From an uncultured bacterium (GTDB taxonomy: Bacteria > Desulfobacterota_D > UBA1144 > Nemesobacterales > UBA2774): a DNA stretch of 64,000 nt. The stretch spans positions 72,533 to 136,532 of the forward strand of contig CAVPJU010000006.1 in NCBI GenBank assembly GCA_963705505.1, read 5' to 3'. Below the pieces are notes generated by a model. That model did no database searches. It saw only the letters and a list, made by a program, of their open reading frames with translations, and had not been told where the DNA came from. A program made the position numbers and the translations under genes. Positions within the stretch are counted from its first letter, which is position 1. Every line of letters begins with the position of its first letter. This document shows, piece after piece, positions 4,743 through 8,631 of this stretch.

Positions 4743-5951
4743 ATGGACACCATGGAATTTATCTCCTTAGAAGAACAAACGGAACAAGTCGCGGCATATC
4801 TGAGAAGAAGGGAGGACTTCACGGGGCACGACCTCGGTATAGTCGTCTCCCCATACCGCATCTCCCCCCTCGGAGCGCACATAGACCACCAGGGCGGACC
4901 CGTGCTGGGGATGACAATCGACGCCAGAACGCTCCTCGCATTCATACCGAATAATGAGAAAAAAGTCCGCCTATACAGCATGAATTACCCCGGAGTCGCC
5001 GAATTCGCCATCGACAATGTCAAGACCCCGGCGAGGGACGACTGGGGAAGATATGCGATGGGGGCTGCGAAGGTGATGAACGATCTTGGCGGCGTAGAGA
5101 CGGGGTTTACGGGCGCTCTTTACGGGACACTGCCCGCCTGCGGGCTCAGCTCCTCCGCATCCTCGGGGCTCGCCTGCCTGAGGGCGCTCGCGTTCGTTAA
5201 CCGTATCAAACTATCGCCCGGGGACTACGTCGAGCTCGACCGGAGGATAGAGAACGATTATTTGAAGCTCTCAAACGGCATCCTCGACCAGTCATCGATC
5301 GTCTACGGTAAAAAAGACAATCTTATATACATCGATACGAACACCGGGAATACGGCCGGGTATCCGAGACCGGAAAGATCCGAAGCGTTCAGGATCATGA
5401 TCGCCTACTCGGGCATACCGCGCGAGCTCACCTCCTCCGGGTTTAATACGCGGGTCGAGGAATGCAGAAAGGCTGCCGGGCTGCTCGGCATAATGGGAGG
5501 GCTGAGGTCGGCAAAAACGCTCTCTTACGTACCTGAGAAGGTGTACCGGGAAAAATCGGAAAAGCTTCCCGATGAGCTCAGAAGGAGGGCGGTCCATTAT
5601 TTTACGGAAGTCGAGCGTGTAACCATGGGAGTAGCCGCCTGGAAGATCGGCGACATGGAAACTTTCGGAAAGCTCATGAACGAATCGTGCGAGAGCTCGT
5701 TCGTGAATTACGAAGTCGGAAGCCCCGAGCTCATATACCTCCAGAAAATTGTAAGCTCGACCGGAGGGGTTTACGGGAGCAGACTGAACGGCGGTGGCTA
5801 CGGGGGCTCGCTGACCGCATTCGTAAGGAAAGATTTCTCCCGCGAATCCGCAGAGGGGATATTAGAACAGTACACGAACGCGTACCCGCAGCTCACAGAG
5901 AGCGCCCGGGTATATTTTGCGGAACCCGACGACGGGCTAAGGCTATTATGA
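4743..5951 (+). CDS. GHMP-family sugar-1-kinase, galactokinase/galacturonokinase-like
   Basis: PYRISPLGAHIDHQGG N-terminal motif, GLSSSAS ATP-binding loop, NGILDQ, GSRLNGGGYGGS C-terminal loop. Confidence 0.88.
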   Translation: MDTMEFISLEEQTEQVAAYLRRREDFTGHDLGIVVSPYRISPLGAHIDHQGGPVLGMTIDARTLLAFIPNNEKKVRLYSMNYPGVAEFAIDNVKTPARDDWGRYAMGAAKVMNDLGGVETGFTGALYGTLPACGLSSSASSGLACLRALAFVNRIKLSPGDYVELDRRIENDYLKLSNGILDQSSIVYGKKDNLIYIDTNTGNTAGYPRPERSEAFRIMIAYSGIPRELTSSGFNTRVEECRKAAGLLGIMGGLRSAKTLSYVPEKVYREKSEKLPDELRRRAVHYFTEVERVTMGVAAWKIGDMETFGKLMNESCESSFVNYEVGSPELIYLQKIVSSTGGVYGSRLNGGGYGGSLTAFVRKDFSRESAEGILEQYTNAYPQLTESARVYFAEPDDGLRLL

Positions 5952-6724
5952 TAGCGATCCTATTATGCGCCGGCTTTGCCACGAGGATGGAGCCTCTTAC
6001 AAAAGATACACCGAAGGCCCTGCTGGAAGTCGGGGGGAAACCCGTCATCGACCACTTAATCGGGCAAATCCTGGAGCTAAGCAATTTGGATTCGATCTAC
6101 ATCGTGACGAACGACCGCTTCTTCAAACACTTTCTTGACTGGGGTGAAAGGAGCGAGGGGGCGATAACGGAAAGAGGGATAAGCCTTCACATATATAATG
6201 ACGGCGTCGAAAGCCCTGAAAGAAGACTTGGCGCTGCGGGCGATCTGGGATTCATGGTGAGCTCCCTCCCCGAAAACAAAGGGGCGCTCGTCGCGGCGGG
6301 AGACAATATCTTTCGCTTCCCGCTCAAGCCCTACTGGGAAATATTCATGAGGGAAGATAAAAGCTATGTGCTCGCACTCAAAACTCAAGACACGGAAAAG
6401 CTCAGAAGGACCGGAGTGCTCGAGCTTGGTCAGGATGACCGCGTAGCGGCTTTTCATGAAAAGCCCGAGAACCCCCCATCGAGCTTTGCCTGCCCTGCCC
6501 TTTATTTTCTTAAACCCCGCTCGCTCGATCTGGTTCATGAGTATCTGTCGTCACCCGATGCCAGAGACGAAATCGGATATTTCATATCATACCTTGCCAA
6601 GCATGACGTTATACATGCATTCCGGGTCGAGGGGGAGGCTATAGACATAGGGACGATAGAGTCCTACGAGAGAGCTAAAAAAATCCTGTCCGAAGAGCCG
6701 GTCATATGTAGAGAAAGAAAGTAA
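5948..6724 (+). CDS. Sugar-phosphate nucleotidyltransferase (NTP_transferase family)
   Basis: ILLCAGFATRMEPLTKDTPKALLEVGGKP, AGDN, FHEKP and DIGT motifs. ATG 5948 overlaps the kinase stop (ATGA). Confidence 0.9.
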   Translation: MIAILLCAGFATRMEPLTKDTPKALLEVGGKPVIDHLIGQILELSNLDSIYIVTNDRFFKHFLDWGERSEGAITERGISLHIYNDGVESPERRLGAAGDLGFMVSSLPENKGALVAAGDNIFRFPLKPYWEIFMREDKSYVLALKTQDTEKLRRTGVLELGQDDRVAAFHEKPENPPSSFACPALYFLKPRSLDLVHEYLSSPDARDEIGYFISYLAKHDVIHAFRVEGEAIDIGTIESYERAKKILSEEPVICRERK

Positions 6725-6777
6725 CTCGCAGGCACCAATCTATATTTTATCTTGATTCGCCTTCGTGAATTTTGTAA

Positions 6778-6798
6778 ATATTTAGGTATGCTAAATAT
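6778..6798. promoter_or_regulatory. Palindromic operator ATATTTAG-GTATG-CTAAATAT upstream of marR
   Basis: 8-bp inverted arms with a 5-bp spacer, 12 bp before the marR ATG. The same motif recurs at 7450-7488. Confidence 0.7.
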
Positions 6799-6810
6799 GA
6801 GGAAGACCAT

Positions 6811-7428
6811 ATGTCCATTTTTGATCCCGTTTACAGGCAAAAAAATATAGGCGGACAGATAACCAGAACCCTATTCCATATCGGCCAGGCGGTCAAGAAC
6901 ATATTCTGGGATAAAAGCAGGCTGGAGCACCTTACCCCCGCGCAGGTCAAATCCCTGCTCTTCATTAATTACACGAGAAAAGACGCTATTACGATAGGGA
7001 ATATAGCCAGGTATCTGACCTGTACGCCCGCAACCGCAAGCGGGGTAATCGACTCGCTCGAAAGGAAAAACCTTATATTGAGGTCAAGGGACACGACAGA
7101 CAGGAGAAGGGTGCATTTATCGCTAACGCCGGATGGGGAAAGGGTCGTCGGCGATATCGAAAATATAGGTTATGAAATGGAAGAAATCATAAGGGAATTC
7201 GATCCCCGGGAACAAAAGATCCTGGAACAGCTTTTACTTAAGATCTCGGAAAAGCTTGCGGAAAGGGGCCTGATTTTTTCGGGCGACATCTGTACCGAGT
7301 GCTGTTTTTTCAAGCGGGACAGTCACTTAGGAGAGCTTAAGCCCCACTATTGTGAAAACCTTCACATACTTCTGAGTGAAGAGGACATATGTATGGAATG
7401 TCCCCACTTCAAAAAAACTCTCAATTGA
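6811..7428 (+). CDS. MarR-family transcriptional regulator with C-terminal Cys-rich extension
   Basis: wHTH with TPATASGVIDSLERKNLILRSRDTTDRRRVHLSLTPDG. The tail contains CTECC-x15-C-x12-CMECPH. Confidence 0.9.
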   Translation: MSIFDPVYRQKNIGGQITRTLFHIGQAVKNIFWDKSRLEHLTPAQVKSLLFINYTRKDAITIGNIARYLTCTPATASGVIDSLERKNLILRSRDTTDRRRVHLSLTPDGERVVGDIENIGYEMEEIIREFDPREQKILEQLLLKISEKLAERGLIFSGDICTECCFFKRDSHLGELKPHYCENLHILLSEEDICMECPHFKKTLN

Positions 7429-7449
7429 AATCATAAAATTTTTTAGTAT

Positions 7450-7488
7450 TATTATTTAGGTAACCTAAATAATAGGTATACTAAATAT
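7450..7488. promoter_or_regulatory. Tandem operator pair upstream of the sigma factor gene
   Basis: Perfect inverted repeat TATTATTTAGGT-A-ACCTAAATAATA (7450-7474) followed by TAATAG-GTATA-CTAAATAT (7470-7488). It overlaps a possible TTGAAA-N16-TATTAT promoter (7425-7452). Confidence 0.7.
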
Positions 7489-7515
7489 CGTGATTATATT
7501 GAGATCGCCAATACC

Positions 7516-8631
7516 ATGAAGCTAAAACAACTAGCGGACATAGACGAGGAAAGCACCCTGACCGATTCGGATTTCAGCCCCGAGGGCGTTTCCGATGAGG
7601 AATTTGATCCCGGCCAGGATGAAGAGACGGAAGGCGTTGATGAGCCTCAAGCCCGTTTCTTCAACAATAAGAGAGACATAACAGACCAGAACTACAGGCT
7701 ACTTTACGCTTATTTCAAAGAACTCAACGATGAGACTCTTCTCAGCAAGCGCGATGAGGCTGTTCTCGCAGCAAAGATTAAGCTTTGCGAAAGCAGGGCA
7801 AAAAAAATCGCCGGGTTTCTAAATAAAAAGAGTGCCAGGAAGAATGGGAACCCCTCGTGGCATGAAACCGTACTCGATGCGCTCGGCAGGTCCTATACAG
7901 CCAGGTCCAAACACTTTCAGGATAAGTTCATCAAGTCCAATCTGAGACTCGTAATCGAACTCGCCAATAAATACACCGGGAGGGGGCTCCCTCTGACGGA
8001 TTTGATCCAGGAAGGGAACATAGGGCTGATGAAGGCGGTAACGAAATTCGATCATACGAAAGGGTTCAAGTTCTCCACATATGCATCGTGGTGGATACAC
8101 CAGTCTCTATCGCGGGCCGTCATGGAGCAGACGCACGTGATACTGATCCCGGTCTATCTCCAGGAGCTTTCAGCCAAGGTCTTCAGGGCAAAGGCGAAGC
8201 TGGAGCACAATACCGATAAGAATGCCGTGCCCGAACAGATCGCAAAAGAGGTGAATATGCCTCTCGATGCCGTAACCACGATCTTGAAGGGGAACGATCT
8301 CGTAGTCCCTCTGGAGCTGCTGCCGGGAAACGAGGATTCCAAATCCTACCTCGACATAACTCCCGACCCCGACTCCAAGAGGCCCGAGTTTTATCTGACC
8401 ATGAGATCGATCTACGATGAGGTAAGGGACTCGTTAGGCCTGTTATCCGAGAGAGAAAGGGACGTCCTCAAAATGAGGTTCGGTATCGATTATGAAAACG
8501 ACCATAAGCTGGAACAGATAGCGGACAAATACGGCCTCAGCAGGGAGAGGATCAGGCAGATCGAAAAGGACGCGCTAAACAAACTGGCCGGGTCCGGGCG
8601 CAGCCATGTGTTGAGGGAATTCCTGAACTAA
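7516..8631 (+). CDS. RNA polymerase sigma70 factor, RpoD/RpoS-like, lacking region 1.1
   Basis: SNLRLV, DLIQEGNIGLMKAVTKFD, GFKFSTYASWWI and region 4.2 LSRERIRQIE. Short acidic N-terminus. Confidence 0.92.
   Translation: MKLKQLADIDEESTLTDSDFSPEGVSDEEFDPGQDEETEGVDEPQARFFNNKRDITDQNYRLLYAYFKELNDETLLSKRDEAVLAAKIKLCESRAKKIAGFLNKKSARKNGNPSWHETVLDALGRSYTARSKHFQDKFIKSNLRLVIELANKYTGRGLPLTDLIQEGNIGLMKAVTKFDHTKGFKFSTYASWWIHQSLSRAVMEQTHVILIPVYLQELSAKVFRAKAKLEHNTDKNAVPEQIAKEVNMPLDAVTTILKGNDLVVPLELLPGNEDSKSYLDITPDPDSKRPEFYLTMRSIYDEVRDSLGLLSERERDVLKMRFGIDYENDHKLEQIADKYGLSRERIRQIEKDALNKLAGSGRSHVLREFLN

Follow-up and report, generated by a model that had tools for sequence, protein, structure and literature searches.

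Can a one-component regulator with a cysteine-rich tail switch an alternative sigma factor directly, through the same kind of DNA site that controls its own gene? This question is raised by a two-gene locus, a MarR-family regulator gene (marR) followed by a sigma-70-family gene, within a 64,000-nucleotide stretch of contig CAVPJU010000006.1 from an uncultured bacterium (the whole of this stretch is referred to here as the window). Our data suggest that MarR very probably represses both marR and the neighbouring sigma gene via one common DNA site. The observations drawn from sequence and comparison comprise the operators and where they lie with respect to a promoter of the housekeeping type, the synteny and co-inheritance of the two genes, the invariance of a Cys4-His tail, and the oxygen (O2) and nitric oxide (NO) cargo of related regulators. 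Orthologous loci for the comparison were drawn from genome contigs, exact-protein look-ups, and 120 genomes of the same class.

Putative operators of marR and the sigma gene

The initial annotation described three copies of a palindrome, one before marR and two in tandem before the sigma gene, overlapping a plausible promoter. The positions were confirmed, with the first site of the tandem (O2a) abutting a TTGAAA-16-TATTAT promoter, while the count had to be corrected (Table 1). When read in the sequence, O1 (before marR) and O2a are perfect 19-bp inverted repeats (7+5+7), and a pattern scan allowing up to two mismatches matched exactly these two sites where 0.14 matches were expected from shuffles. 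The third site, O2b, is a degenerate site and not a third palindrome. It retains the GTATA-CTAAATA centre and right arm but only three of the seven bases of the left arm; this arm is better kept in relatives (ATATTAGG).

We found that the word common to O1, O2a, and O2b (TAGGTANNCTAAATA, up to one mismatch) is confined to these three sites within the 2.88-Mb genome, in a genome-wide motif scan of the kind proposed alongside the initial annotation. The exact TTAGG-N3-CCTAA core occurs once in the genome, at O2a. The core with up to one mismatch occurs at 20 sites genome-wide, and none beyond those of the window has extended arms or a plausible position. The genome-wide search for further operators thus gave no credible extra target, which suggests that the direct regulon of MarR would consist of marR and the sigma gene. 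One core match, at C3:41521, was considered as a further operator and rejected, as it is a ribosome-binding site adjoining an ATG. As a separate observation, cores with up to one mismatch are approximately four-fold rarer than in the block-shuffled genome (20 vs 73-87), though this shuffle preserves neither dinucleotides nor codons and the difference may be compositional.

Since the sigma-gene promoter runs straight into O2a, its -10 element abutting the site, transcription is expected to start inside O2a, with O2b behind it. Relatives carry TTGATA or TTGATT, a spacer of 16-17 bp, and TATTAT or TATAAT at the same place. Between the end of O1 and the marR ATG lie 13 nt that hold just a GAGGA ribosome-binding site, so that any marR promoter would overlap O1 or sit just upstream of it. 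A terminator scan called none on the + strand between marR and the sigma gene. Activator sites normally lie upstream of the -35 element, and neither the marR nor the sigma promoter leaves room for such a site there. Operator placement that coincides with the -10 element or follows it implies repression and autoregulation. MarR had been proposed to autoregulate and to switch the sigma gene directly. Comparison upholds the shared, conserved operators and the repressor geometry on which this proposal depends, while the binding itself is what we infer.

A sigma gene was found 3' of marR in every orthologous locus with enough downstream sequence (approximately 40 loci of the Dadabacteria order), at a gap of 88-330 bp. 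Four apparent exceptions to this synteny are contig ends; locus L011 was rejected as an exception since its contig ends there. A site is present 28-70 bp 5' of the marR ATG in 24 of 25 distinct orthologous loci, and the outgroup locus L035 has no site upstream of marR. In nearly every orthologous locus a strong site lies 30-60 bp past the marR stop codon, and in most of them a weaker second site follows exactly 16 bp further on. Among the non-redundant sites, 24 of them upstream and 49 intergenic, the TTAGG and CCTAA arms are essentially invariant, at MarR identities of 44-92%, and the three-base spacer varies freely across sites (TAT, TAA, TAG, CAG, GTT, AGT, ATT, and others). Invariant arm sequence around a free spacer argues for sequence-specific recognition of the dimer type, as an RNA hairpin would keep its pairing instead. 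Synteny and motif, both of which had been named as checks to be made in relatives, are thus conserved across the order, and the comparison supports the palindromes as operators common to the marR and sigma promoters.

The two genes also co-occur. In family f1, genomes that bear marR have a sigma orthologue of at least 56% identity and eight genomes lack both genes, the few mismatches being contig ends. This co-occurrence suggests that the marR-sigma pair is inherited and lost as a unit. The MarR-linked sigmas of this family form a clade with 100/100 support on a long stem.

The C-terminal cysteine tail and its relatives

The regulator matches the MarR family model PF01047 at residues 42-101 (45.2 bits against a cut-off of 24.6, E-value 8.8e-12). 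Its AlphaFold2 (AF2) model built from a broad alignment has a mean predicted local distance difference test (pLDDT) score of 89.5, and in Foldseek the MarR core superposes on MepR, ST1710, and MexR (E-values of approximately 1e-7 to 1e-6, template modelling score by target up to 0.84). The closest sequence relatives in the PDB (PA3341, MepR, and others) all stop near residue 150. The tail that follows in the window protein reads C161-x2-C164-C165-x15-C181-x12-C194-x2-C197-P-H, and the cysteine pattern given in the initial annotation matches the translated marR open reading frame exactly.

We found no match to the tail in Pfam or NCBIfam, either for the window protein or for ten broad members of its family, and in the PDB nothing covering it was found by sequence search, by a tail-profile search, or by Foldseek. 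A search of 1.84 billion representative proteins with a profile of the tail alone gave 80 matches at E-values of 1e-3 or below, mostly proteins of 200-225 residues with the tail at the C-terminus. The matches examined are MarR proteins of several bacterial lineages, including Cyanobacteria and Pirellulaceae, and nearly all of the 79 examined carry the signature CxxC-x(13-16)-PH[HY]C-x15-C(P), which the window protein fits. Across 63 diverse members (20-88% identity to the window protein) the sole invariant columns are C161, C164, P178, H179, C181, and C197. With the broad alignment, AF2 predicts the tail at a pLDDT of 81-91 as a small, strand-rich domain that ends the long dimerisation helix; with an alignment of the close family the pLDDT of the tail is below 50. 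Together, the invariant columns and the confident AF2 fold indicate that the tail is a real domain under strong constraint, with essential residues of the metal-ligand type. This conservation clearly argues for a functional tail, and the spread of the profile matches indicates that the tail defines a widespread family across several bacterial lineages. No description of this Cys-tail family, or of sigma regulation of this kind in Dadabacteria, was found in open-access papers. Within the Dadabacteria group C71, C161, C164, H179, C181, and C197 are invariant while C165, C194, and H199 vary. The latter three are extras of family f1 (CxxCC and CxxCPH, window 7291-7407) and are absent in families f2 and f3 and in other lineages.

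We asked what accompanies the regulator elsewhere, and six family members from beyond the class-level set of the window were examined in loci of 3.9-8.7 kb. The nearest of these (L035, 43% identity) has a sigma gene 3' of it and an Fe/Mn superoxide dismutase gene alongside; a second sigma gene also lies near this pair. Four members adjoin a protoglobin gene, one of them together with cytochrome bd and another together with a hemerythrin/PAS protein and a flavodiiron-like protein, and one member adjoins cytochrome P460. Each of the six loci contains exactly one TTAGG-N3-CCTAA site (up to one mismatch), which abuts a -10-like hexamer and precedes the gene for protoglobin, for cytochrome P460, or for the regulator itself. 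Two examples are TTGACA-17-TAACAT-G-TTAGGAGTCCTAA in L037 and TTGACT-16-TATAC-TTAGGAGTCCTAA in L067. The regulator and the operator travel together while the cargo changes, which is the best available evidence that MarR binds the palindromes. Since the neighbours consistently belong to O2 and NO chemistry, they point to an O2, NO, or redox signal, probably sensed via an iron-sulfur (Fe-S) or Zn-thiolate centre. The genome of the window was found to contain no protoglobin, so that the sigma factor would be the sole cargo here. In a distant relative (L033:1117-4797) the marR-linked sigma gene is followed in the same direction by genes for a 4Fe-4S ferredoxin and a 630-residue protein of the nitrite/sulfite-reductase type, which possibly hint at the sigma regulon in that lineage.

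Comparison with known regulators places the Cys-tailed MarR, by its sequence features, outside the ArnR, ChlR, and SufR families. ArnR of Corynebacterium glutamicum, a protein of the winged helix-turn-helix (wHTH) type with a C-terminal Cys3(+His) [4Fe-4S] domain, represses hmp (PMC12343034). The likeness lies in a MarR/ArsR-like winged helix, a dimerisation helix, a small C-terminal Cys(+His) domain of no recognised homology, and the presumed role of repressor; moreover, the ArnR cargo is an NO/O2-related haem protein (hmp), which parallels the protoglobin and P460 cargo of the present family elsewhere. The two are set apart by the described cysteine spacing (C179-x13-C193-x29-C223, three cysteines, in ArnR; C-x2-C-x16-C-x15-C here), and ArnR is reported to be nearly confined to Actinobacteria, uses other operators, and controls no sigma gene (PMC12343034). 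The [4Fe-4S] cluster of ArnR is demonstrated, whereas the cofactor of the Cys4-tailed MarR is predicted from sequence. ChlR of cyanobacteria is a MarR-type regulator with an O2-labile [4Fe-4S] cluster (PMC4500134 and references 98 and 99 therein), and the one MarR known to have a proven cluster of this kind. ChlR shares family membership with the window protein, and its activity is set by oxygen-responsive, Cys-ligated Fe-S chemistry. It has 135 residues, its cysteines in the MarR core, and no tail, and it activates tetrapyrrole and desaturase genes, whereas the window protein has 205 residues with its invariant tail cysteines past residue 155.

MepR of Staphylococcus aureus (PDB 4L9T, 4LLL, 4LLN), ST1710, and MexR are dimeric wHTH proteins to which residues 1 to approximately 150 are most similar in structure and sequence. 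As in classical MarRs, pseudo-palindromic operators lie over the regulator's own promoter and a neighbouring one, with predicted autorepression, but MarRs of the MepR type lack a C-terminal Cys domain, respond to ligands or drugs, and target an efflux pump rather than a sigma gene. NsrR acting on hmp (Rrf2 family) and SufR offer a further parallel as one-component Fe-S repressors that act at the promoters of genes for NO/O2 or Fe-S stress. SufR combines a wHTH with four spaced C-terminal cysteines and a [4Fe-4S] cluster, and the window tail likewise contains four invariant cysteines, yet NsrR and SufR belong to different DNA-binding families and have different Cys spacings. The SufR model TIGR02702 did not match the window protein and matched one family member in the HTH part only (20.8 bits against a cut-off of 178.8). 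By analogy, the module would work like ArnR and NsrR and be built like ArnR and SufR.

Alternative sigmas gated by a transcription factor, such as the LitR-LitS pair, consist of a sensor-repressor gene beside a sigma gene and involve no anti-sigma factor. Control of an alternative sigma gene through a repressing one-component sensor encoded beside it has precedents, so the wiring of the module is ordinary; what is new is the undescribed Cys4 sensory tail of a MarR that is here wired to a group-2 sigma. The sensors of LitR-LitS systems are of the MerR/B12 type, and the sigma here is group-2-like, not like those of the extracytoplasmic function type.

A candidate sensor-to-sigma switch and its alternatives

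We consider it probable that the locus is a two-gene sensor-to-sigma module in which MarR represses both promoters, release is sensed by the tail, and the sigma factor is the output. The observed sites, pairing, and tail are here extended to MarR as the binder, to repression, and to a cofactor, signal, polarity, and regulon. In this mechanism a MarR dimer would bind TTAGG-N3-CCTAA at O1, which would cover the marR promoter and 5' leader, and at O2a and O2b, and block RNA polymerase at the marR and sigma promoters, which would amount to negative autoregulation with the sigma gene off. The tandem O2a/O2b pair would shut the sigma promoter tighter than the single-site marR promoter. The tail, with its four invariant cysteines and Pro-His, would most likely hold an Fe-S cluster, with a redox-active Zn-thiolate site as the second choice. 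If O2, NO, or oxidants damaged or removed this centre, the two winged helices would be spaced differently and MarR would come off the DNA. Holoenzyme with the primary sigma would next transcribe both genes of the module; the newly made group-2-like sigma would draw some of the core polymerase to a stress regulon, and renewed MarR would reset the switch. For the nature of the centre we lean slightly towards an Fe-S cluster; a redox-active Zn-thiolate site is considerably less likely, and a purely structural Zn site a little less likely again.

A broader proposal is more tentative, and we hold it at somewhat less than even confidence: the tail would be a novel gas or redox sensor domain of the Fe-S or redox-Zn kind, carried by a multi-lineage MarR subfamily with the fixed operator TTAGG-N3-CCTAA and rewired onto a group-2 sigma in one Dadabacteria order. 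If this is true, one small sensor turns an O2/NO signal into genome-wide reprogramming without an anti-sigma factor, kinase, or proteolysis, while in most lineages the subfamily switches single NO/O2-handling proteins (protoglobin, P460, cytochrome bd, flavodiiron proteins). The sigma-linked version would be the family's only case with a regulator, not an enzyme, as output, and its sigma regulon would reveal how these wetland and groundwater bacteria respond to the signal. Were the tail a metal-centre sensor, it would add to the MarR family a compact, modular sensory domain with a known operator. It would also offer a handle on the signal that controls bacterial protoglobins and P460-type proteins, and on how an uncultured phylum with approximately ten RpoD-like paralogues allots them to stimuli. 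As the operator accompanies a promoter of the sigma-70 type, the module should function in Escherichia coli.

Several points weigh against the proposed switch. Four cysteines in a domain of approximately 45 residues are equally compatible with a structural Zn site, and the AF2 model carries no metal. The polarity of the switch, that is, whether the holo or the apo form binds DNA, could be the reverse. The marR promoter is weakly recognisable, and neither a regulon nor a promoter motif was found for the sigma factor. Four metatranscriptomes yielded one 151-nt contig over marR and otherwise cross-matches to the conserved sigma region 2. Orthology of the sigmas is solid in the family f1 clade alone; across the whole order, the approximately unbiased test, which for one clade gave p = 0.09 and 0.05, neither establishes nor rejects a single origin of the pairing, and marR may have been paired anew with other paralogues.

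The same wiring could also be served by a Cys4 tail that is a structural Zn(Cys)4 site stabilising the dimer, with the signal being a small-molecule ligand in the usual MarR pocket, where the dimerisation lobe meets the DNA-binding lobe, or the oxidation of Cys71 in the DNA-binding domain. The CxxC...C...C pattern and the small size of the tail are typical of Zn knuckles or ribbons, most characterised MarRs respond to ligands or to the oxidation of a single cysteine, C71 is one of the positions invariant within the Dadabacteria group, and Zn is also present in ArnR preparations (PMC12343034). However, the wide family is invariant at the tail residues alone, with neither the core pocket nor C71 conserved; the consistent NO/O2 cargo elsewhere is more in keeping with sensing of a gas or of redox state than of varied organic ligands; and a purely structural role leaves both the invariant Pro-His by Cys181 and the Cys-Pro of residues 197-198 unaccounted for. 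We regard this explanation as unlikely, though it deserves real weight.

That MarR is an activator similar to ChlR, its intact centre turning the sigma gene on from the palindromes, is very improbable. ChlR, whose [4Fe-4S] cluster is sensitive to O2, does set a precedent for activation by a MarR-type regulator (PMC4500134), and the promoter assignments at our locus rest on consensus matching. At the sigma promoter and at all six loci of other lineages, however, the operators coincide with the -10 element or follow it instead of preceding -35, and O1, ending 13 nt before the marR ATG, leaves no space for a downstream promoter. Least probable of all is that the palindromes form hairpins in RNA, serving after marR as attenuator or terminator, or are sites of another factor, such as promoter elements of the sigma itself: the intergenic RNA does fold better than shuffles (z = -2.96) and the motif includes the -10-like hexamers TATGCT and TATACT, but the arms are invariant in sequence and not merely complementary with a free spacer between them, the AT-rich stems lack a U-tract and the scan called no terminator on the + strand, the site accompanies Cys4-MarR genes at loci of other lineages without a sigma gene, and a sigma-promoter motif should recur in the genome, which this motif does not.

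The sigma factor and the surroundings of the locus

We found matches to regions 2, 3, and 4 in the sigma protein, and TIGR02997 aligns from residue 64, in a region-1.2-like part. Region 1.1 gave no match in this protein, which has an acidic N-terminus instead, so that the domain scan bears out the lack of region 1.1 described earlier. The protein scores 262.9 bits against NF004208 (RpoD, cut-off 555) and 238.2 bits against TIGR02394 (RpoS, cut-off 378.7), below both equivalog cut-offs. The source genome (G000, loci L016-L027) has 26 sigma-70 region-2 matches, 11 of them RpoD-like. Among the latter, a 530-residue sigma encoded directly after dnaG (C6:810798-812390) is the primary sigma, and the window sigma was rejected for this role since the primary one sits there. 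The other ten, including that of the window, are group-2-like, with regions 2-4, a short linker between regions 1.2 and 2, and scores below the RpoD and RpoS cut-offs. The window sigma has the features of group 2, namely regions 1.2-like, 2, 3, and 4 alongside a separate primary sigma in the genome. Control without an anti-sigma factor, as proposed in the initial annotation, is the norm for group-2 sigmas and not a special feature, and was overstated in that respect. The ten paralogues (370-460 residues) share WWI(H/Q)Q...PVY and form an unusually large group-2-like set for a 2.88-Mb genome.

The sigma factor had also been described as divergent in its -10-reading region. The letters quoted for it (WWIHQSLSRAVMEQTHVILIPVY) are correct, but the divergence was overstated, as most of it, including H-for-R and Y-for-H, is common to all ten paralogues. 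QTHVIL (vs QTRTIR) is the sole feature peculiar to the window sigma, and the -12-reading Q, S/T, and R and the RERIRQIE of region 4.2 are kept.

Two other paralogues have regulators nearby. At L021 (G000:C2:~49660-54080) a sigma gene lies between a divergent gene for a 336-residue MerR-like regulator (N-terminus ...LTPHAIRAWERRYGVV) and a photolyase-like gene, a locus that seems to resemble the LitR/CarH-LitS light-response module and is a candidate for one. At L020 (G000:C6:~702200-706455) a third sigma paralogue lies by an Fe/Mn superoxide dismutase gene, an Rrf2-type regulator gene, and a SufB-like gene.

Table 1. Positions of the marR-sigma locus and its putative regulatory elements in the window
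Feature	Position	Strand	Description
O1	6779-6797		TATTTAGGTATGCTAAATA; core TTAGG-TAT-GCTAA, one mismatch; just 5' of the marR ribosome-binding site
O2a	7453-7471		TATTTAGGTAACCTAAATA; core TTAGG-TAA-CCTAA, exact; covers the expected transcription start of the sigma gene
O2b	7469-7487		ATAATAGGTATACTAAATA; core ATAGG-TAT-ACTAA, two mismatches; centre 16 bp 3' of that of O2a
Tentative marR promoter	6752-6780	+	TTGATT-17-TAAATA; read from the sequence; weak match, not called by the scan
Sigma-gene promoter	7425-7452	+	Sigma-70 type, TTGAAA-16-TATTAT (10/12); from the promoter scan; overlaps the marR stop codon
marR	6811-7428	+	MarR-family regulator, 205 aa; winged helix at 42-101 and long dimerisation helix at 132-151
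C-terminal Cys4(+His) tail domain	7273-7425	+	Residues ~155-205; C161, C164, P178, H179, C181, C197 invariant
Sigma-70-family gene	7516-8631	+	371 aa, group-2-like paralogue; regions 1.2-like, 2, 3, 4; acidic N-terminus

The marR and sigma genes are co-directional and separated by 87 bp. They are preceded by a GHMP-kinase/nucleotidyltransferase pair and followed by a convergent ispH (LytB) gene on the opposite strand. The pair at window 4743-6724 consists of a galactokinase-like GHMP kinase (402 residues) and an NTP-transferase whose start overlaps the kinase stop. No Rfam family matched in the marR-sigma region, and the sole Rfam matches in the window are two tRNA genes, at 48319-48390 (- strand) and 49574-49644 (+ strand). 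The DNA sequencing runs that contain the sequence are wetland, groundwater, and sediment metagenomes.

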